From: Planctomycetota bacterium
Lineage (GTDB): Bacteria > Planctomycetota > UBA8108 > UBA1146
DNA: 64,000 nucleotides
NCBI GenBank assembly: GCA_036338595.1
Contig: JAYZBV010000015.1
Span: 2,739 to 66,738, forward strand
Reading direction: 5' to 3'
Of the stretch, positions 18,632 to 39,824 are shown piece by piece. Numbering within the stretch: the stretch's first letter is position 1; each line of letters starts with the position of its first letter. The notes beneath the pieces are model-generated. The model was not told where the DNA came from, did not search any database, and was given only the letters and a program-made list of their open reading frames with translations. Both the position numbers and the translations under genes were made by a program.

Positions 18632-20530
18632 ATGGATCTCTCAAATGCAGCGCCCAGGGCGCTCAAAATGCAGTGGATTACCGTTGCGCTCTTGTTCGTT
18701 TCCTCTTCGGTATTCGCAGGAGGTGGACAGTCGCTGAGCATCAGTAGTACCAGTACTCAGGGACTCGCACCGGCGAGCATGACCATCAGCCTGGATTCGA
18801 CAGATGCAACCGAGGGATATGTTCTCGCGGTTGCCTACGACGATTCGCAGGCGAGCGTTTCTGATCTCTCCACGGCAGGCACTGCCACCGAGAGTTCCAA
18901 CTCCGAGTTGGTCGTTCCGGAGATCCTCTCCGGCGGATTTACTCTTGGAGTGGTCGTGGACGCAGAACCTCCATTCGACGGGCATTCGATACCTGCTGGA
19001 TCGGGTCAGACTCTGGCTACGGTCACGGTGACCCCGATGGCGGTTGTGTCTGTTGAGACCGATATCGATTTCTCCTTCTCTGACAACACGCTCAACAATC
19101 CACCTCTGGCCAATATCATCGTCCAGGGTGGAATGTCGGTCGGTGCTGCAGATGGCCTGGGACTCAATGGGGGCACATTGACTCTCAATGTTCCTCCTCC
19201 GGCCACGATGAGCATCGAAGACGGTTCTGCAACTGCAGACGGAGAGGGCAGCACAGGCGATGCTCGAGTCATGCTCGATAACAGCCTCGGTGGCGTCCAG
19301 GGCTTCGTCACCGCCATTTCGCATGATCCTGCCGTGATCACCCTCGAGTCGATCTCCACCGGTGCGGATACAGATGCAGCTGGCGCCGAGTTCCAGATCT
19401 CGAACACCTATGCCAATGGTGGAACCTTTGGAGTCGTGCTCGATTTCTCGAGTCCCTTCGAAGGTCAGACGATTCCCGAGGGTAATGGCGTTCACCTGGC
19501 GAGTTACACCTACTCCTGCAACAACGAAAATATCTATGTTGAGGGAGAGCCTACACCCACCAGTGAGACCAGTGCCTTGACCCTCACAGATGGGACTCTC
19601 GGATCTCCGACGCTCGACAATGTGATCGTCGTGGGTGGTCTGTCGATTTCTCCGCTGCAGGAGAATGGCACCTTCACCTGTGATCCGATCGCCTTCCCTG
19701 CGGAGGACACGATTCTCTGGATGGAGACCGAGTTCGACGAGGGCTCCGGTAACTACGCCTACCACGGTCAGACCGGAGACCTGTGCTTCTTCTATGCCGA
19801 CGAAGACGATTACATCCAGGGCTTCACCTTCACCGTCTGCTACGACTGCAATCTGACAATTCATGAGGACTCCTGGGAGTTCAACGGATCGATCCTGGAT
19901 CAGGTCGGTGTCGAGTACACCGCGGTACAGGTTGATGACGACCCCGATGACGGAGACGGCTGCGAACTGGTTGTCGCGCTGCTTCTCGACGCGCTACCGC
20001 CTTTCGACGGCCAGACACTTCCGCAGACGATGTCCACCAGCGGCAACTCCGCAGATGGTCGTCTGTTGGTCGGCAAGATGCGAATCACCGTCGATATGGA
20101 TGCTGAGTGTAACGAGGATCAGTTGATCGAATGGTGCAACGACATCAACGGCACCGGGGATGTGAATCTCTACAACAACGTGGTCATCGACTTCGAATCG
20201 CTCCAGATCTACGAGCGCAACGACACTCTGGTGCACGTCGTGCCGGAAGAGATCTTCCAGCGTGGCGACTGCAACAGCGACGACAAGGTCGACCTGGCTG
20301 ACACCGCAACAATGCTTGCGAACCAGTTCAATGGACTCGATATCCTGTGTCCTGATGCCTGTGACTCGAATGATGATGGTCATCTGAACATGGCGGACGC
20401 TGTCCACCTGCTCAACTGGCTCTTCAAGTTCGGAGATACACCGCCGGCGCCAGGCCCCCTCGAAGACGGGCCGGATGCTACTCAAGATGACACGCTGCCA
20501 GTATGTGACAGCGACGATACGAACTGTTAG
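18632..20530 (+). CDS. Secreted type A protein A1: three cohesin-like domains plus a C-terminal dockerin-like domain
   Basis: Signal peptide ending SVFA; three repeats of G[FY]xxxxx[YH]D..G[FT]TLGVV.D..PF.GQ.I..N.[IV]V; tail FQRGDCNSDDKVDLAD..DACDSNDDGHLNMAD..LF..PPAPGP; GGGAGGAG ribosome-binding site. Confidence 0.8.
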   Translation: MDLSNAAPRALKMQWITVALLFVSSSVFAGGGQSLSISSTSTQGLAPASMTISLDSTDATEGYVLAVAYDDSQASVSDLSTAGTATESSNSELVVPEILSGGFTLGVVVDAEPPFDGHSIPAGSGQTLATVTVTPMAVVSVETDIDFSFSDNTLNNPPLANIIVQGGMSVGAADGLGLNGGTLTLNVPPPATMSIEDGSATADGEGSTGDARVMLDNSLGGVQGFVTAISHDPAVITLESISTGADTDAAGAEFQISNTYANGGTFGVVLDFSSPFEGQTIPEGNGVHLASYTYSCNNENIYVEGEPTPTSETSALTLTDGTLGSPTLDNVIVVGGLSISPLQENGTFTCDPIAFPAEDTILWMETEFDEGSGNYAYHGQTGDLCFFYADEDDYIQGFTFTVCYDCNLTIHEDSWEFNGSILDQVGVEYTAVQVDDDPDDGDGCELVVALLLDALPPFDGQTLPQTMSTSGNSADGRLLVGKMRITVDMDAECNEDQLIEWCNDINGTGDVNLYNNVVIDFESLQIYERNDTLVHVVPEEIFQRGDCNSDDKVDLADTATMLANQFNGLDILCPDACDSNDDGHLNMADAVHLLNWLFKFGDTPPAPGPLEDGPDATQDDTLPVCDSDDTNC

Positions 20531-20579
20531 TGGAATTATTATCAGGAACTGGATGTTGGAATACCTGGAGGGATTCGGC

Positions 20580-21869
20580 ATGAGACTTATCAATACTGTG
20601 CTGGCGCTGCTATTCGTGGTTTCGACTGCGACTATTGCTGCAGGGCAAGATTATTCGTTGAGCATTTCTAGCGGGTCCATTCCTGACGGTGGTGGCGGAA
20701 GCCTCTCCTTTACGATGGACAACAATGGAGGTGAAATCGCAGGTTGGTCCTTTGGAGCCTGCAACGACACTGCTTTTCTCACCTGTACCGGAGCACAGGA
20801 CGGCTCCACTACCGCTACGGCGAAGAATGGTGGTCCTCCGGACTTCGATCAGATCGGAGTTTTTGACGAGGGCTTCACCGTCGGAGTGGTGATCTGTTTC
20901 ACCGGCTGCGCAACACTGGCGCCGGGAACCGGTTATGAGTTGAATACTGCCGACTACACCTGCAATCAGGAGGGAAGTACCACCGTATCGTATTGCGATA
21001 CCATCGGGTCTCCGCCTGTGGCGACCGTGGTCGTGGTGGATGGCGCTTCGATCGTCCCGGCCCAGAGCTCGGGCGATGTCGCCTGCATCGGAGTCCCCGA
21101 TCCAGAGTACACCTACTCTGCGGGGAGCACCTCTGCTGGTTACAACCCCGCTGACGGAAACGCCAGTGCATCGGTTGACATCAGTATTGCAGAGACAGAC
21201 AACAGCGGCCTGGGAGCTCCATTTCCCAACGATACGCAGGGCTTCTCGATGGGCCTGGGTCATAGTTCCGAAGTGACGGCCACTGCGGTGAACCTGTCCT
21301 TGCCATTCGAAGCTGACTTTGGAGAGGTCTCCATCTACTCAGAAGGTTGGACCATCGGAGTGGTGTACAGCTTCACTGGCGACAATGTGCTGGCATTCGA
21401 TAATGAAACGACCGTGATCACCGCAGATTACGAGACTGGCGGTAGCATGGCCGGGAATGAAACCGGGGCTACAGCTTCGTTGAGCTGGAATGGTGGTCTC
21501 GGATCACCTGCTGTGGCCAATGTGGTCGTGGTGGGTGGAGCTTCCCTAGATGCGGTCCTTTCCGATGGAAGTATCACGCTCAACCCGGTCGTGACGATCG
21601 ATTGGATTCGCGGTGACGCCAACAGCGATGACCGTGTCAATATCGGTGATGGAATCTGGATCATCAGCGAGTTGTTCCTGAATGGACCGGCGAGTACTTG
21701 CCCGATCTCCCGTGATGCGAACGATGACGGGGGTGTGGACGCTGCGGATGCAGTCTACGTCTTCACCTACCGCTTCCTCGATGGGCCGATGCCAGGGGCA
21801 CCGTTCCCCGATTGTGGTCAGACTTCGGGCCAGACGCCTGAGGACTGCTCCGATTCTGGCTGCAGCTAG
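20580..21869 (+). CDS. Secreted type B protein B1: two cohesin-like domains plus a dockerin-like domain
   Basis: Signal peptide; GWSFG.C..GFTVGVVICFTGC; FPNDTQGFSMG..GWTIGVVYSF; tail RGDANSDDRVNIGD..DANDDGGVDAAD..PFPDCG. Confidence 0.8.
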   Translation: MRLINTVLALLFVVSTATIAAGQDYSLSISSGSIPDGGGGSLSFTMDNNGGEIAGWSFGACNDTAFLTCTGAQDGSTTATAKNGGPPDFDQIGVFDEGFTVGVVICFTGCATLAPGTGYELNTADYTCNQEGSTTVSYCDTIGSPPVATVVVVDGASIVPAQSSGDVACIGVPDPEYTYSAGSTSAGYNPADGNASASVDISIAETDNSGLGAPFPNDTQGFSMGLGHSSEVTATAVNLSLPFEADFGEVSIYSEGWTIGVVYSFTGDNVLAFDNETTVITADYETGGSMAGNETGATASLSWNGGLGSPAVANVVVVGGASLDAVLSDGSITLNPVVTIDWIRGDANSDDRVNIGDGIWIISELFLNGPASTCPISRDANDDGGVDAADAVYVFTYRFLDGPMPGAPFPDCGQTSGQTPEDCSDSGCS

Positions 21870-21901
21870 GTCGAAGAAACTACCGTCGATCGGTAAATTC
21901 G

Positions 21902-21941
21902 AAGTCACCTCGCCAATCTGATTGGCGAGGTGACTTTTTTT
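21902..21941 (+). terminator. Intrinsic terminator after B1
   Basis: aagtcacctcgccaatc/gattggcgaggtgactt inverted repeat followed by a T run. Confidence 0.9.
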
Positions 21942-22522
21942 GCTTTCCTCCAGAGGGCATCTCCCAGGATCTGGCCGCATCTACCCTCCCCTCGGATTCT
22001 GGCCAGGAGTCATAAACACCCCTTTTTCAACGTGTTGTGGTTTCGCCAGGGCGATCCGTTCTCTCCACCTGGACTCCGATAACCTCGCCAGCCGTACTCT
22101 GGACGCCTCTGAACTAGTTATTTGAGATCACCCGAACAGGCATTACTGTATGTGAAGAGTTTCATGACTATCAGGACTATCCGGTAGTCGTGACGAGGTC
22201 CGATGAGTTGTCGATGGACCGATAACCCCCAGAGGTGGGTCTACGACTGGGTGTGTAGAGGCTGTGTTGGGATACCGATGCAGTCGACAGTGCAGAGTGC
22301 GAAATATGTTTTCGAGAGTCGAGGAGGGTCTGGAGGAGTTGTGCCGTCGTTGCATTCCGCAACGCGCAGGGCACTGTCACCGTAGATCTCCTGAGTTTAC
22401 CGGTCCTGGGCACTGAGCAGGGACCAGCGTCACTGGGCTGCTAATGAAGAGTAAGAATCTTGTGAGTTGCCACCGCCTGGAACAGCGAGGCGGGATCACA
22501 TTCCTTGAGGAGGGGTATATTG

Positions 22523-24379
22523 ATGCGTAGTTTCATAACGCTGTCGGTCACCGGAGTGCTCATTCTATTCAGCACCATCGTGGCGGGACAGAATTCCATC
22601 ACCATCACCGGCGGAGGTCAATCGGTCCAGGGACTCGGCTCTTCGAGTTTCGGAGTCGACATGACCAATGACGCAGAGGTGGAGGGGTTCGTCGTGGCCG
22701 TGAGCTACGACAACTCAGCGGTGGCGATCACCGATCTATCCACTGCAGGGACCGTGACCGAGGCAGCCGGGGCAGAACTGGTCGTCCCAGAAATCCTTGG
22801 CGCAGGTTTCACGCTCGGTGTTGTGCTGGATGCCACGGCACCCTTCGATGGCCAGACCATCGCGGTGGGTGCCGATCAGAACATCTGCAATTTCACTGCC
22901 CAGTCCGTGATCGTCCTGGAGTCCTCCGATCCGGATGTCGTGACCGGGTTTGATTTTGTCGATGGATCCTTCAATTCACCTGTGCTGGACAACATCCTGG
23001 TACAGGGTGGGCAGGCGATCGGTGTCGCAGCAGGGTTGATCCTCAATGGCGATACCGCGGCGATGTCCATCGGAGCTCCCCCTCCGGCAACCCTGACCAT
23101 CGAGGACACGACTGCAGATTCGAGCGGTATCGGAAGTGTCAGGATCTTGCTCGAAAATTCAGGGGAATCTCAGGGCTTCGTGCTTGCCATCGCACATGAC
23201 GGTTCCGAGTTGACCCTCGAGGCCATCGATCTGGCTGGAACGGAAACCGAGGCAGTCGGTGCCGAGTTTTCATCGATCAACACCTACACTGATGGGGGCA
23301 CGATCGGAGTCGTACTCGATTTTGGCGCTCCATTTGACGGCCAGACCATCGGTGCCGGGGTCGACGTGCATATTGCGAACTACAATTACTCGGACACCGT
23401 CGACATCTATTTCGAGGGGGACCCGATTCCGGCTGACCAGGTCGCAGCACTCGGTTTTTCTGACGGGACCTTCGGAAACCCAGCCCTCAACAATGTCGTG
23501 GTGACTGGCGGTCTCTCCATCGCCCCCGACCTGAATGACGGCACCTTCACGACGCCACCCAACGCGATCCCTGCCGAGGATACGGTGTTGTGGATGGAAG
23601 CTGAGTTCACCGGCGGCGATGCGACGGTCGGTGAGACGGGTGCACTATGCTTCTACTATGCGGATGAAGATGACAACATTCAGGGAATGACGATGACGGG
23701 TTGCTACGATTGCGACCTGACAGTCGGATCCACCTGGGATTGGGGCGGATCGATCGTTGAAGAGGTCGGGGTCGAATACCTCGCCGTTCAGATCGATGAT
23801 GATGGTGCCGATGGGGACGGCTGCGAACTGATGGTCGCCATCCTCCTCGATGCCTTACCTCCCTTCGAGGGTCAGACCTTGCCTCAGACGGGTGATCTCA
23901 GCGAAGGACGCCTGCTGATCGGATGCCTGTCCGTGACGGTTGATGACACCGCCGAATGCGACACCACCCTGGAAATCAACTGGTGTAACGGGATCAACGG
24001 CAATGGAACAGTGAGCCTCTACAACAACGTGGTCATCGATTTCGAGTCGATTCAGATCTACGAGCGCAACGACACATCGGTAAATGTCGTTCCCGAGGAG
24101 GTCTTCCAGCGAGGAGACTGCAACAGTGATAACAAGGTCGACCTTGCGGATGCCGCTGCGATCCTGGCCAATCAGTTCGGAACCTTTGATATCAACTGTT
24201 CCGATGCCTGCGACGTCAATGACGATGGATTGCTCAACATGGCGGACTCTGTCGCGGCGCTCAACTACCTCTTCAAGGATGGTGCGGCACCCCCAGCCCC
24301 TGGACCCGACGAAGTTGGTCCAGACGAAACTGAGGATTCACTGCCAGGCTGCGACAGTGACGATACGAGTTGCGCGTAA
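22523..24379 (+). CDS. Secreted type A protein A2: three cohesin-like domains plus a dockerin-like domain
   Basis: Paralog of A1 (ELVVPEIL.GFTLGVV, LLDALPPF, LYNNVVIDFES, FQRGDCNSD); GAGGAGG ribosome-binding site. Confidence 0.8.
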   Translation: MRSFITLSVTGVLILFSTIVAGQNSITITGGGQSVQGLGSSSFGVDMTNDAEVEGFVVAVSYDNSAVAITDLSTAGTVTEAAGAELVVPEILGAGFTLGVVLDATAPFDGQTIAVGADQNICNFTAQSVIVLESSDPDVVTGFDFVDGSFNSPVLDNILVQGGQAIGVAAGLILNGDTAAMSIGAPPPATLTIEDTTADSSGIGSVRILLENSGESQGFVLAIAHDGSELTLEAIDLAGTETEAVGAEFSSINTYTDGGTIGVVLDFGAPFDGQTIGAGVDVHIANYNYSDTVDIYFEGDPIPADQVAALGFSDGTFGNPALNNVVVTGGLSIAPDLNDGTFTTPPNAIPAEDTVLWMEAEFTGGDATVGETGALCFYYADEDDNIQGMTMTGCYDCDLTVGSTWDWGGSIVEEVGVEYLAVQIDDDGADGDGCELMVAILLDALPPFEGQTLPQTGDLSEGRLLIGCLSVTVDDTAECDTTLEINWCNGINGNGTVSLYNNVVIDFESIQIYERNDTSVNVVPEEVFQRGDCNSDNKVDLADAAAILANQFGTFDINCSDACDVNDDGLLNMADSVAALNYLFKDGAAPPAPGPDEVGPDETEDSLPGCDSDDTSCA

Positions 24380-24496
24380 CAAGGGATCTGGAAATTGCCC
24401 GGGAGCAGCGGTGCCCTGGCAGTGCGAACAGGTGAGTAAGAAATAACGGAGTCGATGGCAGTGCCCATCGCGAACAAAAGGGAAAGTGACTGAATT

Positions 24497-25852
24497 ATGA
24501 GGAAGAACAGTAGTCTCTGGATGGCCATCGCTGTCCTGGGCATCTCCATCGCCTCGACCGCCGATTATGTGGTGGCTGGCGGGGGAGCCACATACAGCAT
24601 GAGTAGTGGCTCCACGGCTGCGGGCGGCACGATCACGCTGTCGGCAACCCTGGATAACGGTGGAGGAGATATCAGTGGTTGGTCCTATGGAGTTTGCCAT
24701 CCTGAGGCGATAGCAACAGCCTCCAATATTGGCGATGGTGATGGAGCTGCCAACAGCACATCGACGGTCAATAACGGTGCTCCAGCGAGTTTCGACGAAA
24801 CCTCCATCTATGCCGGCGGCTGGACTCAAGGTGTGGTCATCGACTTTGTCGGTTGCTGCGTGGTCGCCTCGGGAACGACTGGATTCCTGATGGCCACTGC
24901 CGATTACACGGTGGACACCGCAGCCGCACCGGGAGATTTTTCGGTCGATTATTGTGGCGGAACACTGGGATCTCCCGTGGTGGCGAATGTCGTCGTCGTG
25001 AATGGAGCTTCCATAGCGCCGATGGTGGAGAACTCTGGCACCATCACCGTGATCGAGGTCCCTGATCCCGAGTGGAACTACATCGGTGGGACCTCTGCCG
25101 GTAACAACTATCCGGCATCGGCTGGCATCGGCGGAATGTCGGTTGCTGCAGGCTTTTCAATCCAGGAAAAAGACAACAGTTCCCAGGGCGCAAATTTCCC
25201 CAACGAAACACAGGGGTTCTCGATGGATTGCGGGAACGATGGAGCCCTCGTGACTCCCACTGGCGTCACGATGAGCCTCGGTTTCGATGCGGATTTTGCG
25301 GAATCCAACCTGTACGCAGACGCATGGACCCTCGGAGTCGTCTACGACTTTGCCGGTGGAGTCACCGTTACCTACGAAACTGCTTCAGAGGTGGTGAGTG
25401 TTGCCTATGAGGGCGTTTCTGGCGCACTCGCTGGAGTAGAAGGGGCGACCACGACACCCCTGGCCTGGAATAACGACACCGGATCGCCACCTGTGGTCAA
25501 TGTGGTGGTGTTCGGAGGAGGAAGTTACCCGGCGAATTTCAACAATGGATCGATCGAGTTTGTTGGAACCGTGACCAATGACTTCCAGCGTGCGGACTCG
25601 AACGATGATGGAACAGTCAACATTTCAGACATCATCTGGTTGCTCGCGGAACTCTTCAATGGCGGACCCGTGACCGATTGCGCCAAGGCAGATGATTCAA
25701 ACAACGACGGCTCGGTGGATGCGGCTGATGCCGTCTTTATCGCAACCTACATCTTTCTCGGCGGTGCTACACCGGCAGCTCCGTTCGGGACCTGTGGATC
25801 GGACCCGGGACAAACTCCCGCAGATTGTGTGAGTTACAACAGTTGCCCTTAG
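24497..25852 (+). CDS. Secreted type B protein B2 (most divergent B)
   Basis: Signal peptide; GWSYGVCH, FPNETQGFSM, tail FQRADSNDDGTVNISD..DSNNDGSVDAAD. Confidence 0.78.
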   Translation: MRKNSSLWMAIAVLGISIASTADYVVAGGGATYSMSSGSTAAGGTITLSATLDNGGGDISGWSYGVCHPEAIATASNIGDGDGAANSTSTVNNGAPASFDETSIYAGGWTQGVVIDFVGCCVVASGTTGFLMATADYTVDTAAAPGDFSVDYCGGTLGSPVVANVVVVNGASIAPMVENSGTITVIEVPDPEWNYIGGTSAGNNYPASAGIGGMSVAAGFSIQEKDNSSQGANFPNETQGFSMDCGNDGALVTPTGVTMSLGFDADFAESNLYADAWTLGVVYDFAGGVTVTYETASEVVSVAYEGVSGALAGVEGATTTPLAWNNDTGSPPVVNVVVFGGGSYPANFNNGSIEFVGTVTNDFQRADSNDDGTVNISDIIWLLAELFNGGPVTDCAKADDSNNDGSVDAADAVFIATYIFLGGATPAAPFGTCGSDPGQTPADCVSYNSCP

Positions 25853-25868
25853 ACGTGCTGTGAGTCCT

Positions 25869-25890
25869 CGAGCCGACAGGGGTCGGCTCG
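25869..25890 (+). other. GC-rich stem-loop after B2, no T tract
   Basis: cgagccgac-aggg-gtcggctcg. Confidence 0.6.
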
Positions 25891-26048
25891 GAAGACGGAT
25901 CAGTGCACTGTGTGAATCGAAACTGTGTGAAGCGAAGTAGTGGACCAGGTATTTTTGAAATTGGAGAAACGGCCAGTTGGAAATAGGTAGCACAGGAATG
26001 GATTCCTTGCTCTTGTTTCCGGGCTCGAATGAAAACAGTTGAGGAGAG

Positions 26049-27470: not shown

Positions 27471-27488
27471 AGCATTTTATTGGTAAAG

Positions 27489-27533: not shown

Positions 27534-27601
27534 AAGTAACGGTCTTGCGCTTTTCTGTTTCGAAAAACAGGCGGCGAGTCCAGGAAGAGGGTGACGTGAC
27601 C

Positions 27602-30728: not shown

Positions 30729-30770
30729 AAGCGAGCCCGAAGCCAGCCGGCTTCGAGCTCGCTTTTTTTT
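30729..30770 (+). terminator. Intrinsic terminator after B4
   Basis: aagcgagcccgaagcc-agcc-ggcttcgagctcgctt followed by a T run. Confidence 0.88.
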
Positions 30771-31289
30771 GATCTGCATCGCCTTGCCCTGCTACTTCCT
30801 CTGATCTGTCCCTGCTGACCCGCATCGAGGCAGAGACTCCCATCTGGACCTCATCATCGGTAACAAATACCGAGGTCCGGCAGCAATTGCCGCAAATCCT
30901 CGATCGATACGACGGAATCCTTCGGCATGAGGGGCGAGCTAGCCACGCGGGTAAGTTTGTAAACGCTGTTGTCTATAGACAGGATTGACAATGAGTGATA
31001 CGGTCGAGGTTCGAGGACAGGAGTCCCGACACGACTCCCCAGCACCACCGGATTCAAACCCGGCATGTCCTACCTCTTCCTGCGCCACATAACCGGCAAT
31101 TGTTGTCGGGCTGATCGGTGGATCTGCTCTCCCCTGGAGCGATTCCTGTGCCGCCTGACTTGTTTACATACATTTTGTTAATTCCCCCCCTTTATCGGAG
31201 TTGTTCCGTGAGGACAGGACCAGGGAAGAAAGGCCCCCCTGACCGACTGGCAACTTCGAAGTGTCCCCAGGAGACGAGGAGAGATAGTG

Positions 31290-33122
31290 ATGAACCGCAG
31301 TCTCAAGCGCCTTCGCAGCGCACTGCTCGCGGTACTTTTCACCGTGATCGGTACCCATGCCTTCGCACAGAATTCACTGACCATCACAGATGGACAGTCG
31401 GCAGGACTCGCTTCCGAGACATTGAGCGTCCTCATGGATGCCGATGATTCGGTCGAGGGTTTCGTTCTAGCCATCACCTTTGACAGTGCCTTGCTGTCGG
31501 TGAGCGACATTGTCGCAGGATCTGCTACTCTTGCAGCTTCTGCAGAGTTGATCGTTCCGGAAACTCTTCCGGGCGGTTTCACGCTTGGAGTCGTTGTGGA
31601 TGCGACTGCACCATTTGACGGCCAGGAAATATCTGCCGGTACGGATCTGCAGATTGCGGCCTTCACGCTCACACCCCAGACCATCGTGACAACGGATACT
31701 CAGAGCGCCGTTGAGTTTTCAGACGGTGTTTTGAACAATCCGCCGCTGTCCAATCTGCTGGTGCAGAATGGTCAGAGTATCGATGCCTCCAGTGGCCTCG
31801 GACTCAACAACGGAACGATGACTCTGCTTCCTCCTCCTCCTGACAGCATGCGCATCGAGTCGATTTCGTTCGATTCCGATTCCTCGGGTGCGGCTCGCGT
31901 TCTGCTCTCCAACTCCAGTGGAGCAGTTCAGGGATTCGTTCTCGCTGTTGCACATGATTCGGCAGTGGTGACACTCCAGGGGATCACCCTTGGTGCAGAG
32001 ACCCTCGCTGCCGGCGCTGAACTGGTCGTTCCTGAGTTGTACTCCAACGGTGGAACTCTTGGAGTGGTGCTCGATTTCGAGAGCCCGTTCGATGGCCAGA
32101 GCATTCCGACAGGAGATGACAACCACATCGCCAGTTTCAGCTACTCGTCCAACTCGGTCATCGAGAATCCGGACCCATCGGTATTCACTTCTGTCGACCT
32201 CGTCGACAACCAGCTCGGAAGCCCCTTGCTGGACAATGTGATCGTGGTTTCGGGCCTTTCCATCAGCCCCTCTCTTGAGGGCGGAACCCTGGAGTTGCTG
32301 GGAATCACGATCCCGGTCAACGACACGGCGTTCTACATCGGTCAGCGGGACTTCCCGGAGACCGGTACCAATGGTGGACTGGGTTTCCCCGGCCAGGAGA
32401 TCGAGTTCTGTTTCTTCTACAGCGATCCGAACGACAACATTCAGGGTGTCCAGATGGCCGTCTGCTACGACGACCTGATTCTGATCGACGGTACCTTCAC
32501 CATTGAAGGTTCCATCGCTGACGAACTGGGTGCTGAATTTGTCAACTACCAGATCGATAACGATGACAACGACGGTGACGGCCGCGAGCTGGTCGCCGGT
32601 ATTCTCATGGACGCTCTTCCACCCTTCGAGAACCAGCAGCTCCCTTCCACGGTCGAGCCGCTGATGATCGCCTGCGTGCAGGCTGAAGTTGACAGTGGAG
32701 CGGCTTGTGGTGATACGTTCAGCATCGATTTCTGCGACGGAATCAATGGAAACGGCATGGTCCCGATCAACAACCTCGTTGTTATCGAGTACCAGTCGGT
32801 TCAGTCCTTCGAGCGCTACGGTGCCACCTACGAGATCATTCCAGTTCCCGCTTTCCAGCGTGGCGACTGCAACACCGATACGAAGGTCGACCTCGCCGAC
32901 GCAGCCACTGTGATCGCCAGCCAGTTCCAGGGATACGAGGTCGGATGCCTCGACGCCTGTGACGCCAATGACGATTCAGTAATAAACCTTGCAGATTCTG
33001 TTTACCTGCTCAACTTCCTGTTCAAGTTCGGTCCCACGCCTCCGGCGCCGGGTCCTTACACGCCGGGTGCTGACCCGACAGAGGATGACCTCGATTGCAC
33101 TCTTCCGGCGTCTTGTAACTAA
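31290..33122 (+). CDS. Secreted type A protein A4: three cohesin-like domains plus a dockerin-like domain
   Basis: Signal peptide ending AFA-Q; GFTLGVVVD, GGTLGVVLDF, MDALPPF, FQRGDCNTDTKVDLAD..DACDANDD; start is GTG 31287 or ATG 31290. Confidence 0.8.
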   Translation: MNRSLKRLRSALLAVLFTVIGTHAFAQNSLTITDGQSAGLASETLSVLMDADDSVEGFVLAITFDSALLSVSDIVAGSATLAASAELIVPETLPGGFTLGVVVDATAPFDGQEISAGTDLQIAAFTLTPQTIVTTDTQSAVEFSDGVLNNPPLSNLLVQNGQSIDASSGLGLNNGTMTLLPPPPDSMRIESISFDSDSSGAARVLLSNSSGAVQGFVLAVAHDSAVVTLQGITLGAETLAAGAELVVPELYSNGGTLGVVLDFESPFDGQSIPTGDDNHIASFSYSSNSVIENPDPSVFTSVDLVDNQLGSPLLDNVIVVSGLSISPSLEGGTLELLGITIPVNDTAFYIGQRDFPETGTNGGLGFPGQEIEFCFFYSDPNDNIQGVQMAVCYDDLILIDGTFTIEGSIADELGAEFVNYQIDNDDNDGDGRELVAGILMDALPPFENQQLPSTVEPLMIACVQAEVDSGAACGDTFSIDFCDGINGNGMVPINNLVVIEYQSVQSFERYGATYEIIPVPAFQRGDCNTDTKVDLADAATVIASQFQGYEVGCLDACDANDDSVINLADSVYLLNFLFKFGPTPPAPGPYTPGADPTEDDLDCTLPASCN

Positions 33123-33177
33123 CAACCGAACTAGGAACCCATAGAAAAGGACTTCCACACGGAAGTGGAGTAAGACA

Positions 33178-34482
33178 ATGAAAACAACCAAAGTTGCTCT
33201 CACCCTTGCCTTCGCGCTCCTGTTCGGAGCCCCGGCAATCGCACAGTACGACCTGACGCTCTCGAGCGCCTCCGGTGCCCCCGGATCCAGCGCAGACATT
33301 CAGGTCCTGCTGGACAACAACGGCGACGACATTCAGGGCTGGTCCTTCGGGGTCTGCCATGATGGCCTCGCTCTCAGCCTGACGGCTGTTGTCGACGGAG
33401 CCACCACCTCGACCGTGAAGAACGGTGGACCGCCTGACTTCAACCAGGTCAATGTGTTGGCTGCTGAGGGATTCACAGTCGGAGTTGTGATCTGTTTCAC
33501 AGGCTGCGCTGTACTGCCTACTGCCACCACCGGCAACGAGTTGAATGTCGCCACCTACGATTTGATCGGCGCCGCCGGAACCACCACGGATGTGGAATAC
33601 TGTTCCACCATCGGTAGTCCTGCGGTCGAGATCCTGGTCGTGGTCGGTGGACAATCGATTCTTCCCTCGACATCCTCCGGCACCATCGAGTTGGTCTCCG
33701 GACCGCCACCCTTCGACTTCAGTACTGGGGATTACTCGCAAGATTATGACGGACTCACTGGTGAAGCTACTGTTTCGATCAGCCCGATGATTACCGAGAA
33801 TCCGGATAACCCCGGTTTCCCCAACGATACCCAGGGATTTTCCATGGGTCTGTCGCACGATAGTGCAGTGCTGTCCCTTGACTCGGTGGTATGGAACAGC
33901 GCACTCGGATTTGACCCGGACTTCGCGAATGGGGACATGGGACTGGCCGGCGGCTGGACCATCGGAGTGGTGTACAGTTTCACAGGTCAGAATACTCTCG
34001 CCTTCGAGACTGCCACCGCGGTACTACTCGTTGACTACAGCACCGTTGCTTCTGGCCTCATTGACCTCGAGACTCCGACGACCACGCCACTGGCCTGGTC
34101 CAACGACCTCGGATCCCCCCCGGTTGTGAACATCGTCGTGGTAGGCGGCAACAGTCTTGATCCGTCTCTCACGGATGGAACTGTGACCCTGAACCCGACT
34201 TACGCTCCGCCTGACACTCCGTTCGTCCGTGGCAACTGCAACGGCGACGATCGTGTAGACATCGCCGACGGTATCTGGATCCTCAACGAGATGTTCCAGA
34301 GCGGACCCGCTGGCACCTGCGCAGAGGCGTGCGATGCCAACTCTGACGACATGACCGATACCGCGGATGCAATCTTCGTGATCAGCTACCGGCTGCTCAG
34401 CGGCCCGATGCCCACTGCTCCGTTCCCGGAGTGTGGAATCGAAGAGGGAGCAGACTGCGAATCTGCTTCCAACTGCCCCTAA
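33178..34482 (+). CDS. Secreted type B protein B5
   Basis: Signal peptide ending AIA-Q; GWSFGVCHD, VVICFTGC, FPNDTQGFSMGLSHD, FVRGNCNGDDRVDIAD. Confidence 0.8.
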   Translation: MKTTKVALTLAFALLFGAPAIAQYDLTLSSASGAPGSSADIQVLLDNNGDDIQGWSFGVCHDGLALSLTAVVDGATTSTVKNGGPPDFNQVNVLAAEGFTVGVVICFTGCAVLPTATTGNELNVATYDLIGAAGTTTDVEYCSTIGSPAVEILVVVGGQSILPSTSSGTIELVSGPPPFDFSTGDYSQDYDGLTGEATVSISPMITENPDNPGFPNDTQGFSMGLSHDSAVLSLDSVVWNSALGFDPDFANGDMGLAGGWTIGVVYSFTGQNTLAFETATAVLLVDYSTVASGLIDLETPTTTPLAWSNDLGSPPVVNIVVVGGNSLDPSLTDGTVTLNPTYAPPDTPFVRGNCNGDDRVDIADGIWILNEMFQSGPAGTCAEACDANSDDMTDTADAIFVISYRLLSGPMPTAPFPECGIEEGADCESASNCP

Positions 34483-34517
34483 GCGAGAGAATCCAGGCTC
34501 TCCTGGACACACGGGAA

Positions 34518-34552
34518 GGTCCGATGCGGTTCGCCGCATCGGACCGTTTTTT
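34518..34552 (+). terminator. Intrinsic terminator after B5
   Basis: ggtccgatgcgg-ttcg-ccgcatcggacc followed by gtttttt. Confidence 0.9.
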
Positions 34553-34585
34553 GTGTGCGGGTTGGCCGGATAACCTGGACCTGTA

Positions 34586-34613
34586 TTGACGCTGGAATGG
34601 ATCTGGATACGAT
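34586..34613 (+). promoter_or_regulatory. Candidate sigma70 promoter for the large lipoprotein gene
   Basis: TTGACG-16-TACGAT immediately after the B5 terminator. Confidence 0.5.
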
Positions 34614-34805
34614 GGAGGTAGCCTCGGGGATCACGCAACCGCCGGGTCTTGCCTGACATTCCTTCCGGAAGCTCCATCGTCGACGACCAGTCGAGACGGC
34701 CTGTGGTGCCGTGTCTCCAGGTTGTCAGAACCCGGTTTCATTTCAACCGGGAGAACCACAGGGTTTGGTATATCCGAGCCCGAGAACGACGACGGAGGCC
34801 GATCG

Positions 34806-37800
34806 ATGAAGATCGCCCTGATGAAAACACTCATGCTGCCGATGCTGGCGATGTTGCTGGTCACGATCGGCTGCACCAATGCTCCCTCTGTGCCCTTCAC
34901 CACTCCTTCCGATGGAGCCTTCAATGTGCCGGTAGGCACTGCCATCGAGGTGGCATTTTCCACTGCGATGGACTCTGCTTCGGCAACAGATCCTGCCAAC
35001 TGGAGTATCCAGGCATCTCTTTCAGGAGTTCACTCTGCGGTGGGGGCACTGGATGCCGACCTGAGGGTTCTGACTCTGACTCCTGACGCACCCTTCCTCC
35101 AGGGAGAAACGGTCACCGTCAGCATCTCCGATGGAGTCAAGACTTCGGTGAACATTCCCATCGATCCGATCTCAATCCAGTTCACCATCGAGGGAGCCGG
35201 GGCATCATCCGACGACTTCGAGCCATCGGATGACGAGTTCAGTCTGTTTCAACTGAACCCGACAACCGGATCCGCCTCGATTCCGCTTCGTCCTTCGGTG
35301 ACTGCTACATTTGATCTTCCATATCAGACAACGAGTGCCTCTTCTGCGGTGACCGTTCATGGCACGAGGACCGGATGGAGGGATGTCCAGCTCGCCTTCC
35401 CCGGGCAGGTCGGTGGACTCACTGATTCGCTGCAGGTGCTGATCCCCGGAAATTCTCCGGAGCTCCATCCAGGAGAGTGGATGCAGGTGGTGTTCAATTC
35501 CAAATTGCTTTCCGAGATCCAGCACGATGAAGATGAACCCCGCTTCCTGAACCCTTATGTGGCACGTCTCCGTGCTCGCCTGGGCCATGCGACCGGAGGC
35601 CTCGGGCCTCGTGAAGCGGTGTCTGCAGTGGGTACCGATCCGGTACTACTCGCGGAACTGGGTGAGTTCCTGCCCTACAGCGGGCTCGAGATGGTGGTCC
35701 TGCACAATTCTGGCTCGATTAAACTGCTGCGCAGTGGCGCGAGCGGCGAGGCATCTGCATGGACACTCCAGTCCGAGATGCAACTCGATTCCGCTCCGAT
35801 TGCTGGAATGATCGTCGATATCGATGCCGATTCCCGTACAGAAGCTTTGATTTCCTGCGCCGACGGAACGATTCGGATTGTAGGAGTACAAGGACAGGAT
35901 CTGATCGAGGAGCAGGATCCGATCGACCTTCAGGGTGCGCTGATCGAGGTTCTTGCCTGGGCGGAACTCAACGGCGATGGTGTACCCGATCTCCTCGCTG
36001 GAGCGGCCGACGGATTGCGAATCATCCGCATGATCAGGAGCATCGACCCCGATACTTTTGAACTCATCGAGGAATTCACCGTGACCGGTTTATTGCCGCT
36101 CGGGGGACCTGTCGAATCGATCGCGGTCGCAGACTTCGATCGTGACGGTCGTATCGATGCTCTTGTCTCTGCAGGTGATGGATACTTGCTGCGCGGAGCG
36201 GGCACCGGGGCATTTCTCGAGGCGGCTCTCCTTTCGCCTGCACCTCAGGGAGAAGTTTGCATCGGTGATGTAGATGGCGATGGATGGATCGATGCAGTGG
36301 CCATTGCGGCCAGTGGCCTGACGATTCACCTGCATCCAGGGACTCTTCCAGAGCAATCCTGGGAGGGCATCCCGTATCTCACCGGTGGGCTGGTTCAGGA
36401 CCTCGCTGTCGGTGAGGTCGACGGAGATCCTGTAGCCATCGATGACATCGTGGTGCTCCAGAGCGGCACGCTCGATCCTCTGACACTGATTCGACGACTC
36501 TCTGCCGACCTGGGCGATTCGGAACTGGTTTCGCTCGATTACAGCCAGGACCCCGGTGCAGGATCGATCCTGCTGGCAGACAGCGATGGCGATCATGGCA
36601 CCGATATTCTGCTTCAACTGTCTCAATCCGAGCCCTCTGGCGCACTTGCGTTGTGGAGGTCCGCAGCGGTGGTCAGTGCCGATGATTCGCAGTTGATCTT
36701 CAGTCTTCCTGCGCAGGTGACGGTGGGCCCTGGAGTGCCAGAGGTTGAAATCCCGCTCACCGCAGATTTCGAGCAGGATGTGACCCAGTTCATCGTTGCC
36801 ATCGAGTTTGATCAGGAACTGCTGCAGATCGTCAGAATCGAGGCGGATCCAGCGACCTTCCCCTACGGGGCGGTAAATATTGTCGAACACTTCGACCAGG
36901 AAAATGGAATCGCGGCTGCAGAACTCGACATCAACGGATACTTGCCCGCAGGCAATGGCACTCCACTGGCGCGAATCGTTTTCCAACCGCAACCGAGCAT
37001 GCTCGGTGAGGCGGTATACCAGCTGGCGGACGGGCTCGACATCGATGGCACTCCCTGGTCCAATCAGGCAATTCTGAATACAGATGGCGCCCTCATTGCG
37101 GCAGAAATCTCAGGCGCCCAAGGCATCGTTTCCATCGAATCGACGACCCCTTCTCCAGAGGACCTGAGTTGCCTTGCTGTCTCGGTCGGAGGAATCGACG
37201 AGGTGATTCTCGAGTGGGCAAACCCGATCTCATACGATTCTCAGAGCGGCATCGAGATCCACAAGAATGGTTCCTTGCTGGCGACGCTCACCGGAGCGAC
37301 GACCAGTTTCATCGATGAGGGTCCCGGCATCGGCACCATCGATTACTCCGTTGTCGGCGTTTCTGCAGGAATCGATTCCGTACCTGTCAGTTGCGAGGTC
37401 GTGCTGATTCCTGCACCGGTACTCCAGTGCCAGCGGCTCGTGAGTCTCCCGGAGCGAGTGTTTCTTTCCTGGGCATTTGTCGGAGGAACCTTCAGCTGGG
37501 AACTTCGCAGGGACGGAAACCTGATTGCCCAGTTGAACTCATCGATACTCACCTTCAATGACGACATCGATCTGAATGCCCACGATTACGAACTGCGCTC
37601 CATCCAGGCTGGCCAGCAGAGTTCAGTAGGTGCTCCCTGCAGCGTCACCGATGCCGGGGGAGCAGGAACAGTGGCTCCATCGGATGTTACGGCGGTGCTG
37701 ATCGGGGCTGACGATGTGAGGATCACCTGGTTCAACGGAGAATCGTACGACCAGATCGACCTGATGGCCGATGGTATCCTCATCACCAGCCTCCCTGGAA

Positions 37801-39824
37801 GCTCGACCGAATACGAGGCGAGCGATCAGTTCCCCGGTCCTGTGGTCTACTCCGTACAGGCTCTCGGTGATGGTGGTGCCAGTACCGTTGCAAACGCCGC
37901 TGAAGTGAATGTACCCCTGGCCCCTCCAACTTCCGTTCAGTGCGAATCGTCGGGTGCCATCGTGGACCTGTCGTGGCAGAACGGCCCGGAGTCCTTCGAC
38001 TACGACGAGATCGTGGTGGAGCGAACCGGAGGAGGATTCACCGATTTCTTCAATCTTGGCGGCACCGAAACGAGTTTTTCTGATGATGCTGGAGCCGGTG
38101 AGTGGAACTACACGGTCGTCGGTTACTACTTCCATCAAGGCGCCAATCACCCTGCCCCCGGTGCCGCTTGTAGCATCTCCATCAGCGAGCGAGTCTTTTA
38201 CGATCCGACCATCACTGTTGTCGGTAGGCCCTTCAGCATTGATCTCATGGGGCAATTGCTGGAACAGACATCTGGCTGGATGATCGAACTCGATTACGAC
38301 TCGACCCGCTTGGAGGACATTTCCGTGCTTGTACCGGGAGTGGCTCCTACGGGCGTCTCGACCACCGACGAGCCGCTCGGCACCTTTGCGGGATTGCGTA
38401 GACTCACGATCCAGGTCGAGGGTGCGTCTGCTTCTGCGTCGAGTTCTGCGATTCTGGCGACTCTTTCCGGTACCGTGCCCGGTGACTTCACGCTACTCGG
38501 GTCGGCTCTTTGTCACCTCGTCAGTGCAACGCTGGAGCCTTCATCCGGAGCCCCGGCGACATCTCCTGCGCTGTTCGACGGAGGCGTCAACGTCTCGGGA
38601 AATGCTCTGTTTGTCGAACCTGCGATTCTCAACCCCGGTGAAGAGGTTGTGGTGTGGGCGCGCGGTGTCTGGCAGCAAGATCTGACCGGATACAGCGTGG
38701 TTCTGCAGTGGGATCCTTCGATCCTGACCTGTCTCGAGGTCAGTAACATCGGCACGGTGGGTGAGGACCTGAGTGGGCCCTTCTCTGCCTTCTTCTCGGG
38801 GATCGATGCTTCCGCAGGGACAGCATTTGGTTCCGTCATCTCTGCCTTCGACAGTATCCCGTCGTCGCTCTCGGCTGAACTGGGGTACTTCAGGTTCCTC
38901 GTCTCTCCCTCGGCCCCTCAAGGCCTGAGAACCGAGGTATTCTTTGGCGAGCACCAGACAGCCAATTCCACTGTGACCAATCTTTTCGTCGATGATCAGG
39001 CAACCTCGATCACTCCGACAACCATGGGAGCCGAGTTCGAGGTGTTGTCCGATCCCCAGCCTCCAACGCTGCTCTCTATCGATCCAACTTCCGGTTCGAC
39101 CGCAGGTGGAACCGAGGTGCTTTTCAATGGAACCGGATTCACGTCGGATACGACGGTCTTCTTCGGCGATCAGTCCGCGAGCGCTGTGATCTTCATCGAT
39201 GCGGGTACGATACTCGCAACCACTCCCGCCGGGGCAGTCGGCAGCGTGGATGTTTCGGTGTTCACTACCTACGGCTCCGCAACCTTGCCTCAGGGGTTCA
39301 GTTACTTCGAGACCAGCATCGATGGCTTTGATCCGGCCGAGTCTCCGCTGTGTGGAATGATCGAGATGTCGGTCACGGGATCGGGCCTCCCCGCAGGTCT
39401 TGGAGTGCTCTTCGGAACAGAGCCCGCGACTTCCGTGGTGGTCAGTCCAGACGGAACCAGCGCAACGGTGGTGGTTCCCTCGTCCTATGATGCAGGACCA
39501 GTGGACCTGGTCTTCATCGACGGATTTGGTTCAGTGATGGAGACCTTCAGCGGCGGATTTACCTACATCGATGACGGCATCTTCTTGCGCGGGGATGTCA
39601 CCTGTGACGGCTCGGTGAACATCGCTGATGTCTCATCGATTGCCGCATATGTCGCAGGTGCAGGGGTCACTCCGGTGATCCTCGATGCAGCAGACATCGA
39701 CGACAATGGTGTGGTTCATATCGGCGACGCCGTGTTGTTGGCGAGTTTCCTCTTCTCTGGAGGAGCACCACCGGCGGCTCCGTTCCCCGATGCGGGAACC
39801 GATCCGACCCCCGACGGCCTCTAG
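34806..39824 (+). CDS. Large multidomain putative lipoprotein (Ig-like x2, FG-GAP/VCBS repeats, cohesin-like x3, FN3-like x4, IPT/TIG x2, dockerin-like)
   Basis: MLAMLLVTIG-C lipobox-like; TTPSDGAFNVPVGTAIEVAFS; DxDxDG repeats (ELNGDGVPDL, ADFDRDGRID, GDVDGDGWID); LxW.N..YD.I repeats; PTLLSIDPTSGSTAGGT; FLRGDVTCDGSVNIAD..DAADIDDNG. Confidence 0.78.
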   Translation: MKIALMKTLMLPMLAMLLVTIGCTNAPSVPFTTPSDGAFNVPVGTAIEVAFSTAMDSASATDPANWSIQASLSGVHSAVGALDADLRVLTLTPDAPFLQGETVTVSISDGVKTSVNIPIDPISIQFTIEGAGASSDDFEPSDDEFSLFQLNPTTGSASIPLRPSVTATFDLPYQTTSASSAVTVHGTRTGWRDVQLAFPGQVGGLTDSLQVLIPGNSPELHPGEWMQVVFNSKLLSEIQHDEDEPRFLNPYVARLRARLGHATGGLGPREAVSAVGTDPVLLAELGEFLPYSGLEMVVLHNSGSIKLLRSGASGEASAWTLQSEMQLDSAPIAGMIVDIDADSRTEALISCADGTIRIVGVQGQDLIEEQDPIDLQGALIEVLAWAELNGDGVPDLLAGAADGLRIIRMIRSIDPDTFELIEEFTVTGLLPLGGPVESIAVADFDRDGRIDALVSAGDGYLLRGAGTGAFLEAALLSPAPQGEVCIGDVDGDGWIDAVAIAASGLTIHLHPGTLPEQSWEGIPYLTGGLVQDLAVGEVDGDPVAIDDIVVLQSGTLDPLTLIRRLSADLGDSELVSLDYSQDPGAGSILLADSDGDHGTDILLQLSQSEPSGALALWRSAAVVSADDSQLIFSLPAQVTVGPGVPEVEIPLTADFEQDVTQFIVAIEFDQELLQIVRIEADPATFPYGAVNIVEHFDQENGIAAAELDINGYLPAGNGTPLARIVFQPQPSMLGEAVYQLADGLDIDGTPWSNQAILNTDGALIAAEISGAQGIVSIESTTPSPEDLSCLAVSVGGIDEVILEWANPISYDSQSGIEIHKNGSLLATLTGATTSFIDEGPGIGTIDYSVVGVSAGIDSVPVSCEVVLIPAPVLQCQRLVSLPERVFLSWAFVGGTFSWELRRDGNLIAQLNSSILTFNDDIDLNAHDYELRSIQAGQQSSVGAPCSVTDAGGAGTVAPSDVTAVLIGADDVRITWFNGESYDQIDLMADGILITSLPGSSTEYEASDQFPGPVVYSVQALGDGGASTVANAAEVNVPLAPPTSVQCESSGAIVDLSWQNGPESFDYDEIVVERTGGGFTDFFNLGGTETSFSDDAGAGEWNYTVVGYYFHQGANHPAPGAACSISISERVFYDPTITVVGRPFSIDLMGQLLEQTSGWMIELDYDSTRLEDISVLVPGVAPTGVSTTDEPLGTFAGLRRLTIQVEGASASASSSAILATLSGTVPGDFTLLGSALCHLVSATLEPSSGAPATSPALFDGGVNVSGNALFVEPAILNPGEEVVVWARGVWQQDLTGYSVVLQWDPSILTCLEVSNIGTVGEDLSGPFSAFFSGIDASAGTAFGSVISAFDSIPSSLSAELGYFRFLVSPSAPQGLRTEVFFGEHQTANSTVTNLFVDDQATSITPTTMGAEFEVLSDPQPPTLLSIDPTSGSTAGGTEVLFNGTGFTSDTTVFFGDQSASAVIFIDAGTILATTPAGAVGSVDVSVFTTYGSATLPQGFSYFETSIDGFDPAESPLCGMIEMSVTGSGLPAGLGVLFGTEPATSVVVSPDGTSATVVVPSSYDAGPVDLVFIDGFGSVMETFSGGFTYIDDGIFLRGDVTCDGSVNIADVSSIAAYVAGAGVTPVILDAADIDDNGVVHIGDAVLLASFLFSGGAPPAAPFPDAGTDPTPDGL

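Follow-up and report, generated by a model that had tools for sequence, protein, structure and literature searches.

Tandem genes for enzyme-free proteins with cohesin-like and dockerin-like modules in an uncultured marine planctomycete

The closest described counterparts, in layout, of the proteins considered here are the adaptor and primary scaffoldins of the cellulosomes, among them ScaC and ScaA of Ruminococcus flavefaciens, ScaB of Acetivibrio cellulolyticus and CipA of Clostridium thermocellum. These are secreted, enzyme-free proteins with one or several cohesins and one C-terminal dockerin, which stand between the anchors and the dockerin-tagged cargo. We describe ten consecutive genes of similar layout that fill positions 18632-39824 of a 64,000-nucleotide stretch of DNA (the window) from contig JAYZBV010000015.1 of the planctomycete genome GCA_036338595.1 (G000 in the locus names below). 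In our estimate there is about an even chance (0.5) that their products are connectors within a large cohesin-dockerin system that is non-cellulosomal and of the kind termed a planctosome, in an uncultured marine class of Planctomycetota.

The architecture of the smaller proteins of this array (cohesins plus one dockerin, and no enzyme) is that of the known adaptor or primary scaffoldins and in itself not new. As in cellulosomes there is more than one dockerin subtype, the proteins would likewise stand between anchors and tagged cargo, and one of the solved structures matched by their repeats (5lxv_A) is titled 'Scaffoldin C'. The differences are considerable. No cellulase or carbohydrate-binding module (CBM) context was found among the families listed for the dockerin-tagged proteins; the cohesin-like modules have diverged too far to be recognised by Pfam; 43 of 46 cohesin-bearing proteins also have a dockerin; nine to ten of the genes stand in tandem; the candidate anchors are lipoproteins rather than surface-layer homology (SLH) or sortase proteins (no search aimed at SLH or sortase motifs was made); and the host is a Gram-negative-type marine planctomycete.

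Within the Planctomycetes, a planctosome has been proposed for the freshwater Nemodlikiaceae (Andrei et al. 2019; PMC6461901). The accessible parts of that article describe one anchoring and one adaptor protein with single cohesins, together with LTD, proprotein-convertase P-domains, HYR domains and dockerin-tagged peptidases, including M12B and M14. Both systems, as far as that description extends, combine cohesin and dockerin modules without a link to cellulose, and the dockerin-tagged set of the present genome holds LTD (one), P_proprotein (seven) and HYR (three), besides two M4 peptidases with cohesin-like and dockerin modules; M12B and M14 peptidases are not among the families listed for it. 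The present genome differs from what is described there in its 73 cohesin-like modules, tandem arrays of multi-cohesin scaffoldin genes, 141 dockerin-tagged open reading frames (ORFs) and marine lineage. Judged by habitat labels and architecture, it appears to have neither the freshwater Nemodlikiaceae setting nor the plan of one anchor and one adaptor. Arrays of enzyme-free cohesin-dockerin genes are not described in the accessible parts of PMC6461901, of which supplementary figures 13 and 14 may show closer architectures, and none of the papers found on planctosomes and on cohesins and dockerins in Planctomycetes describes, by title or abstract, tandem enzyme-free cohesin-dockerin arrays in marine members.

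A third system, the amylosome of Ruminococcus bromii (Ze et al. 2015; PMC4611034), is also non-cellulosomal and also includes a protein with both module types. According to the available portion of that article, the cohesin of Amy4 binds the dockerin of the same protein and multimers are expected, while the system as a whole has 26 dockerins, few cohesins and a sortase-type anchor, Sca2. Amy4 is an enzyme with a single cohesin, in a system anchored by the sortase-type Sca2, whereas the window proteins are enzyme-free. What sets the present case apart is the scale, the tandem multi-cohesin enzyme-free genes, the near-universal pairing of cohesin and dockerin on one chain, the lipoprotein anchors (as predicted), a cohesin subfamily invisible to Pfam, and the marine clade.

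Layout of the array and homology of its modules

The ten ORFs comprise four A-type proteins (632, 624, 473 and 611 aa), five B-type proteins (426-451 aa) and one giant of 1700 aa. All-against-all BLASTP and MAFFT alignment gave the order signal peptide, R1, R2, R3, dockerin-like module and short Cys-containing tail for the A-type, and signal peptide, R1, R2, dockerin-like module and tail for the B-type. The 21 repeat copies in the nine smaller proteins (3, 2, 3, 2, 2, 2, 2, 3 and 2 in gene order) are about 150-180 aa long (~155 aa) and form one alignable family, with a consensus showing QGF/W...D, GxTxGVV and GSP..N.VV; each repeat position (A-R1, A-R2, A-R3, B-R1, B-R2) is a distinct conserved class, making five. 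The ten proteins are rich in Asp and Glu (10.4-16.0%) and poor in Lys and Arg (1.1-2.8%), and Pfam revealed no catalytic family in any of them. A first-pass annotation of the window had reported ten co-directional plus-strand genes in exactly this place, coding for acidic, Lys/Arg-poor proteins that all end in a two-loop dockerin-like module, nine of which have nothing besides two or three repeats, and none a recognisable catalytic domain; this description holds in full. Its picture of subunits with one donor and two or three acceptors agrees with the module architecture, and its supposition that the repeats are cohesins finds support at the profile level through divergent relatives, bridging sequences and language-model features (the ESM-Atlas clusters), as set out below.

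We consider it very probable, by homology, that the repeats are a divergent subfamily of cohesins. The alignments on which this rests are numbered independently of the proteins: A1 is the B-type profile, A2 the A-type profile, A3 the 21 window repeats, A4 a set of 95 divergent relatives and A5 a set of 12 planctomycete cohesins that pass the Pfam cut-off. The 21-repeat profile recovers at least 2028 representative clusters (50% identity) at E<=0.001, and the 95 relatives of A4 were taken from the more distant of the clusters listed. Pfam Cohesin is found in thirteen of these at E<=0.01 (best 2.5e-11) and Dockerin_1 in 38, and no family besides these two matches more than one member. The A4 profile matches solved cohesins at all three of its repeat positions, namely 5lxv_A [E 8.1e-5], 2vn5_A [2.8e-4], 1g1k_A [3.5e-4] and 4uyp_A [4.6e-3]; its other matches among solved structures are dockerins and one weakly matched GlcNAc-binding protein (8gul_A; E 0.29).

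Sequences that bridge the window repeats and recognised cohesins lead to the same conclusion. A hidden Markov model (HMM) made from the 21 window repeats only gives 61.4 bits with an ORF of the same-family genome L003, over residues 64-215, and these residues pass the Pfam Cohesin (PF00963) curated cut-off of 24.1 bits with 32.3 bits. By coordinate overlap, the once-iterated profile covers the Pfam-matched stretch in five (L003, L006, L002, L013 and L005) of the 21 planctomycete cohesin loci that pass the Pfam cut-off, and in the planctomycete's own genome four of six weak Pfam Cohesin matches fall inside repeat-profile matches. For R2 of the A2 protein, 28 of the 30 nearest named ESM-Atlas clusters carry Cohesin (score 0.94); the Atlas has no structural model of the array proteins. 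Compared directly with solved structures, the window-only profile has a cohesin as its top match, at E 0.011 over 55 residues, and also matches a 106-aa exoglucanase/xylanase chain (6qfs_A; E 0.056); the A-type profile (A2) gives no cohesin match and the B-type profile (A1) dockerins only.

Two 12-residue calcium loops, with D or N at positions 1, 3, 5 and 12 and each followed by a stretch that looks helical from the sequence pattern, are present in the alignment at the C-terminus of all ten proteins. Examples are D-C-N-S-D-N-K-V-D-L-A-D and D-V-N-D-D-G-L-L-N-M-A-D; the first position of the first loop is N in B4 and B5, as is its position 5 in B4. A solved dockerin (2y3n_B) is matched at E 7e-7 by the family-wide profile A4 and at 1.1e-5 by the B-type profile. 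On this sequence evidence we accept the C-terminal modules as divergent dockerins whose Cys pattern is specific to the lineage and whose Pro/Cys tail is conserved as PPxPxPxCGxDPTxDxLxCxxxxxCP behind the module in otherwise unrelated proteins. In a tree of all 143 dockerin-like modules of the genome, those of five three-repeat proteins and of the A3 protein form an A-type clade (support 0.968) with a mean identity of 71.5% internally against about 43-45% to all others, and the B-type dockerins interleave with enzyme-borne ones. The existence of two dockerin subtypes and five conserved cohesin classes suggests defined partners.

All genes of the array are on the plus strand. A1 (18632..20530, 632 aa) consists of a signal peptide, three repeats (R1 18719-19183, R2 19196-19687, R3 19700-20251), an A-type dockerin-like module (20252-20455) and a Cys-containing tail. 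Its Dockerin_1 score is 16.1 bits, under the curated cut-off for PF00404 of 22.9 bits, and its R2 contains a weak Pfam Cohesin match [E 0.22], the best in the window from the genome scan. B1 (20577..21869, 430 aa) follows with a signal peptide, two repeats (R1 20646-21089, R2 21144-21590) and a dockerin-like module of the general type (21597-21812; Dockerin_1 21.1 bits). A2 (22505..24379, 624 aa) has three cohesin-like repeats (R1 22589-23068, R2 23081-23560, R3 23573-24100) ahead of an A-type dockerin-like module (24101-24304), and B2 (24497..25852, 451 aa) has two (R1 24581-25054, R2 25109-25570) ahead of a dockerin-like module (25577-25792) that exceeds the cut-off at 25.4 bits. The A3 protein (26049..27470, 473 aa) is an A-type protein without R1, left with R2 (26160-26642), R3 (26655-27191) and the A-type dockerin-like module (27192-27395). 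B3 (27602..28882, 426 aa; the ORF possibly starts at 27545) is 79% identical to B1, with R1 at 27656-28099, R2 at 28154-28600 and the dockerin-like module at 28607-28822. The two repeats of B4 (29382..30677, 431 aa; R1 29442-29888, R2 29952-30404) precede a dockerin-like module (30411-30626) with a degenerate first loop, N-C-N-G-N-S; Pfam gives no match for this protein, and the loops are nonetheless visible in the ten-module alignment. The A4 protein (31287..33122, 611 aa) again has three cohesin-like repeats (R1 31368-31823, R2 31836-32303, R3 32316-32849) with an A-type dockerin-like module (32850-33053), and B5 (33178..34482, 434 aa) has two (R1 33244-33696, R2 33748-34200) with a dockerin-like module at 34216-34431. 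In ORF coordinates the successive intergenic spacers measure 46, 635, 117, 196, 131, 499, 609, 55 and about 240-320 nt, so that the genes are arranged mostly in A-then-B pairs. The copies are 60-93% alike at the DNA level and are therefore old duplications, not an assembly artefact.

The giant (34722..39824, 1700 aa) probably starts at M29 (nt 34806). It contains Big_5 (residues 52-154), an FG-GAP propeller (FG-GAP_3), two TIG domains (1448-1528 in Pfam) and Dockerin_1 (1624-1676; nt 39591-39749). The iterated repeat profile adds a clear cohesin-like module at residues 1298-1441 (nt 38613-39044; 30.5 bits) and a weak one at 666-765 (nt 36717-37016; 14.7 bits). A third candidate segment (about residues 1175-1300) was rejected as unsupported by the repeat profiles, and none of the three candidates has a Pfam match at E<=5. 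The giant also carries a lipobox-like signal, ..LLVTIGC (pattern match), and in 15 related loci an orthologue of it comes after array genes.

Genome-wide complement, candidate anchors and conservation

The source is a 2.9-Mb metagenome-assembled genome (MAG) in 114 contigs, 88% complete with 7% contamination. Its stop-to-stop ORFs were searched with lineage-specific HMMs built from the window modules and iterated on the genome, which gave 143 dockerin-like modules in 141 of the ORFs and 73 cohesin-like modules in 46. Both module types occur together on 43 ORFs, a dockerin alone on 98 and a cohesin-like module alone on three, two of which reach a contig end. In 135 of the 141 ORFs no more than 35 aa separate the end of the dockerin from the C-terminus, and in 35 of the 43 two-type ORFs a cohesin-like module lies within 15 aa of the dockerin. 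The first-pass annotation had counted about 24 cohesin-like against 10 dockerin-like modules in the array and concluded that there were spare sites for dockerin-tagged proteins encoded elsewhere. Its ten dockerins stand, 22-23 cohesin-like modules are supported rather than about 24, and the dockerin-tagged proteins elsewhere exist in the form of the 98 dockerin-only ORFs; the surplus that would leave spare sites holds only within the window (21-23 cohesins against 10 dockerins) and is reversed at the genome level (73 against 143).

The possible cargo was surveyed by a family scan of 94 dockerin-only ORFs; of the full 98, it set aside the giant and three short fragments. The families listed include P_proprotein (seven), CCP_MauG di-haem peroxidase (five), HYR (three), Metallophos/purple acid phosphatase (two) and arylsulfotransferase (two), and one each of Endonuclease_1, GSDH (glucose/sorbosone dehydrogenase), LTD and penicillin amidase; FG-GAP proteins are numerous, and lectins, PKD domains and cadherin-like domains also occur. 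The families listed for these 94 ORFs (25 of 30 and 25 of 43) include no glycoside hydrolase and no CBM, although rare families may lie outside the listing. Dockerin-borne cell-wall hydrolases and cellulose-binding scaffoldin modules, by which a cellulosome would be recognised, are thus missing from the families listed and from the ten window proteins as well. Two thermolysin-like M4 metallopeptidases of about 1530 aa (G000:C57:30618-35222 and G000:C73:65431-70020) consist of a propeptide, galactose-binding-like domains and C-terminal cohesin-like module(s) plus dockerin, which places enzyme, cohesin and dockerin on one chain as in R. bromii Amy4. Two proteins encoded on another contig (G000:C40:3044-4255, 404 aa; G000:C40:9116-10372, 419 aa) have a cohesin between two dockerins. 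In this genome only the cohesin of the first protein exceeds the Pfam cut-off (25.6 bits), and the contig has five further dockerin-tagged ORFs.

Depletion of Lys and Arg is common to the entire dockerin-tagged exoproteome. The median K+R content is 1.7% for the scaffoldin-like proteins of the window, 2.3% for all scaffoldin-like proteins, 3.2% for the whole dockerin-tagged set (and 3.2% in the 98 dockerin-only ORFs), and 10.7% for 995 other ORFs of the genome of at least 400 aa. As to the cause, one may guess at nitrogen saving or protease resistance. Cys is about twice as frequent in the dockerin-only ORFs as in other ORFs (2.3% against 1.2%).

A candidate anchoring scaffoldin lies outside the window at G000:C84:4357-5808. 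This 484-aa predicted lipoprotein (lipobox ..LIIGGC) has three He_PIG Ig repeats and ends in a cohesin-like module without a dockerin, and on these sequence features it looks like a base to which other scaffoldins could attach. Open frames of similar size that match it over the full length are present in all 16 same-family and both same-order genomes searched, and its orthologues include L194-L196. In the four copies examined, the lipobox is visible and the dockerin-less cohesin-like end is confirmed in each; the pattern script flagged two of the four lipoboxes because it demands a preceding Met.

The repeat family was found in all ten same-class genomes sampled, against one of 191 other Planctomycetota genomes sampled. 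Its homologues are 'hypothetical' proteins of uncultured MAGs titled mostly Planctomycetota or Planctomycetia (UBA1146 and TMED53, for example), and the habitat labels, where seen, are marine. No cultured member of this clade is known to us. Related loci also contain arrays of three-, two- or one-repeat genes with a dockerin. A second conserved locus (G000:C19:45246-53295, with about 20 related loci such as L146-L165) encodes, in order, a dockerin-only protein of ~730 aa with a weak NHL match, one three-repeat, two two-repeat and one one-repeat protein. Upstream of the array, rpoA-L17 is found in nine loci, and the order giant-RadC-metallophosphatase-YidC is found downstream in four. A mobile island was considered and rejected, since this synteny between rpoA-L17 and RadC-YidC in relatives makes the locus part of the core chromosome.

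A proposed anchored hierarchy and its alternatives

From the sequence features, the most likely roles are those of Sec-exported adaptor scaffoldins in a hierarchical system for the nine smaller genes and of a predicted lipoprotein with cohesin-like modules and a dockerin for the tenth. We infer the anchoring, the hierarchy and every binding step as follows. The lipid-anchored proteins, that is the giant and the conserved dockerin-less Ig-repeat lipoprotein with its terminal cohesin-like module, would form a base at the surface, into which the A and B proteins would plug by their calcium-binding dockerins. Each docked A or B protein would use one cohesin and bring two or three, so that docking sites multiply and limited chaining of scaffoldin on scaffoldin is allowed, a step that is plausible by analogy with R. 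bromii Amy4. The ~98 dockerin-tagged exoproteins (peptidase-associated, phosphatase, nuclease, di-haem peroxidase, lectin and FG-GAP) would then fill the free cohesins.

Several results count against this proposal. Of the HMM searches that the first-pass annotation had recommended, the one with Dockerin_1 gives matches at E<=0.1 in nine of the ten window proteins, and the one with Cohesin matches none of the ten whole proteins at the same threshold; when the repeats are taken in isolation one of 21 matches (E 0.097), and the PF00963 cut-off is not reached. Aligned by hhalign with the 12 Pfam-passing planctomycete cohesins of A5, the window repeats (A3) obtain a probability of 24% (P 8e-4, 58 columns). 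Of the ten dockerins, only two are over the Pfam cut-off (B2, and the giant with 27.8 bits), seven are below it (E 3.7e-4 to 0.039) and one is without a match, and in the whole genome Pfam alone yields 55 dockerin matches at E<=0.01, as compared with the counts from our self-built HMMs. At about two dockerin-like modules per cohesin-like module, not all dockerins can be docked simultaneously. The dockerin-like module, present on about 5% of all genes, stands almost without exception at the very C-terminal end with a conserved Cys-rich tail behind it, and in this resembles a sorting or anchoring tag. Lastly, the lipobox calls were made with a simple pattern of our own rather than with a trained predictor. 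A complex prediction for the B2 repeats (29-358) with the B2 dockerin and tail (361-451), run with alignment A1 for both chains and without controls, scored 0.01 against a mark of 0.32 and speaks neither for nor against binding.

The first-pass annotation had favoured another arrangement, in which each A or B protein is an AB2/AB3 monomer with a dockerin that binds cohesin-like modules of the same protein or of the others, and the monomers build a branched, enzyme-free lattice or coat analogous to an S-layer, with any other docking secondary. The nine proteins do consist of one dockerin and two or three cohesin-like modules and nothing else; the first cohesin-like module begins within about 110 residues of the ORF start in 32 of the 43 two-type proteins, leaving no long N-terminal region, and the closeness of cohesin-like module and dockerin in 35 of them suits head-to-tail chaining. 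The many diverged tandem paralogues, the conservation of such arrays, the low Lys and Arg content, as might be expected of an abundant exported structural protein, and the coverage of array genes by contigs of RNA libraries (below) are all consistent with a coat, and a cohesin that binds the dockerin of its own protein has a precedent in R. bromii Amy4 as far as the available portion of PMC4611034 tells. The separate conserved A-type dockerins and the distinct repeat classes suggest defined partners instead of promiscuous networking, 98 dockerin-only proteins compete for the 73 cohesin-like modules, and the dockerin-less lipoprotein cohesin suggests a defined base. Moreover, in known type I/type II systems the dockerins of scaffoldins usually avoid the cohesins of the same protein. 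We consider such a coat unlikely: the surplus of dockerins, their division into subtypes and the dedicated anchor make it less likely than an enzyme-display scaffold, and the separate A-type clade together with the conserved dockerin-less lipoprotein speaks for a hierarchy with order and anchoring rather than for a lattice that polymerises at random.

The distribution of the dockerin-like module raises a different question, namely whether module and Cys-rich tail are mainly a lineage-specific tag for sorting or envelope anchoring, read by the machinery of export or attachment or by some envelope component other than a cohesin, with the repeats binding other ligands. The C-terminal position in 135 of the 141 ORFs, the share of about 5% of all genes, the tail conserved across otherwise unrelated proteins and the 2:1 excess over cohesin-like modules would all suit a tag. 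Annotation practice already contains such an idea in NCBIfam NF041540, 'GC-type dockerin domain-anchored protein', which treats a C-terminal dockerin-like domain as the anchor of many unrelated secreted proteins; no paper using the term 'GC-type dockerin' was found in the literature. B2 matches this family weakly, and its 16.6 bits, the best among eight window proteins, compare with a cut-off of 29; nor does NF041540 appear among 25 of 45 families listed for 49 dockerin-only proteins. No candidate sorting enzyme turned up, and no search aimed at one was made. The modules keep both canonical calcium loops and match solved dockerins, and cohesin homologues have expanded in the same genomes, with 43 of 46 cohesin-like proteins bearing the dockerin-like module. 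A role mainly in sorting seems unlikely, to about the same degree as the coat, and stays a serious rival because of the position of the module.

More speculative, and in our opinion quite improbable, is an enlargement of the proposal to the entire class. Here the outermost layer would be a self-propagating branched cohesin-dockerin lattice grown from lipoprotein anchors, a universal docking matrix for the ~5% of the proteome with a dockerin 'address tag', in which the A-B pairs are interchangeable lattice variants. Finally, that the repeats are carbohydrate- or particle-binding beta-sandwich modules, and the array a set of variable adhesins for marine polymers or particles tied to the cell by the dockerin-like end, is very improbable: the proteins are indeed beta-rich, acidic, secreted and present as many diverged paralogues, with weak profile matches to 6qfs_A and 8gul_A, but every significant non-dockerin match is to a cohesin, and we rank this reading low because no CBM family was found for the 21 repeats or the 95 relatives.

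Should the binding steps of the anchored hierarchy hold, no non-cellulosomal cohesin-dockerin system larger in relation to its genome would be known to us. Most of the exoproteome in a widespread clade of ocean planctomycetes would then be organised on a modular scaffold, and the peptidases, phosphatases, nucleases and haem enzymes on it would bear on the processing of dissolved and particulate organic matter. The at least 2028 clusters of cohesin-like modules are missed by Pfam, and the cohesin and dockerin content of metagenomes is undercounted in surveys for that reason. Protein engineering might also draw new orthogonal cohesin-dockerin pairs from this family.

Transcripts and chromosomal setting

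Contigs assembled from RNA libraries cover parts of the array at 90-99% likeness in four of four runs from four studies; the libraries with the locus are labelled marine, seawater or hydrothermal vent, and such contigs cannot rank expression between genes. In one run (X3) the mean word depth of the contigs is 340-474 over the first A-B pair (18648-21967) and 107-135 over the rpoA/L17 region (14000-17983), depths that cannot rank the genes either. After 21967 the depth falls to about 10, again a contig depth without ranking value, next to a terminator-like hairpin with a 17-bp stem and a T run (21901..21937, plus strand) that follows the first A-B pair. Contig ends near 21877-21897 were rejected as a transcript end, the contigs carrying loose ends there. 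A second terminator-like hairpin, with a 12-bp stem (nine G-C pairs) and a T run, lies between B5 and the giant (34518..34545, plus strand). Terminator-like sites number 14 in the region against 14.0 expected from shuffles, and only the length of the 21901-21937 stem stands out. Two promoter-like sites upstream of A1 (18343..18452, plus strand) match the consensus at 10 of 12 positions each, a consensus match only; seven such sites were found in the region and 8.4 expected from shuffles.

The array is flanked upstream by the SecY...RpoA-L17 operon and downstream by RadC, a metallophosphatase, YidC, MnmE and SMC. Scans of the whole window for tRNA genes and for Rfam families at the gathering score found none, and the 428-aa ORF between MnmE and SMC (45576-46862) matches no Pfam family at E<=0.001. 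The ORF of ribosomal protein L17 (17232-17978) is 248 aa long, with the Pfam L17 domain confined to residues 34-121; the remainder is a very acidic extension (D+E 21.8% over the ORF), and the tblastn matches of relatives end at about residue 135-146. Some MAG records with the same neighbourhood are titled 'Bacillota bacterium' or 'Proteobacteria bacterium' (L116, L142 and L179, QNYK01...; L168, L169, L172 and L178, JAFMMO01...). They share with the window rpoA/L17 (97% identical in L116, 72% in L172), the giant, RadC and YidC (L179), and these taxonomic labels look wrong.

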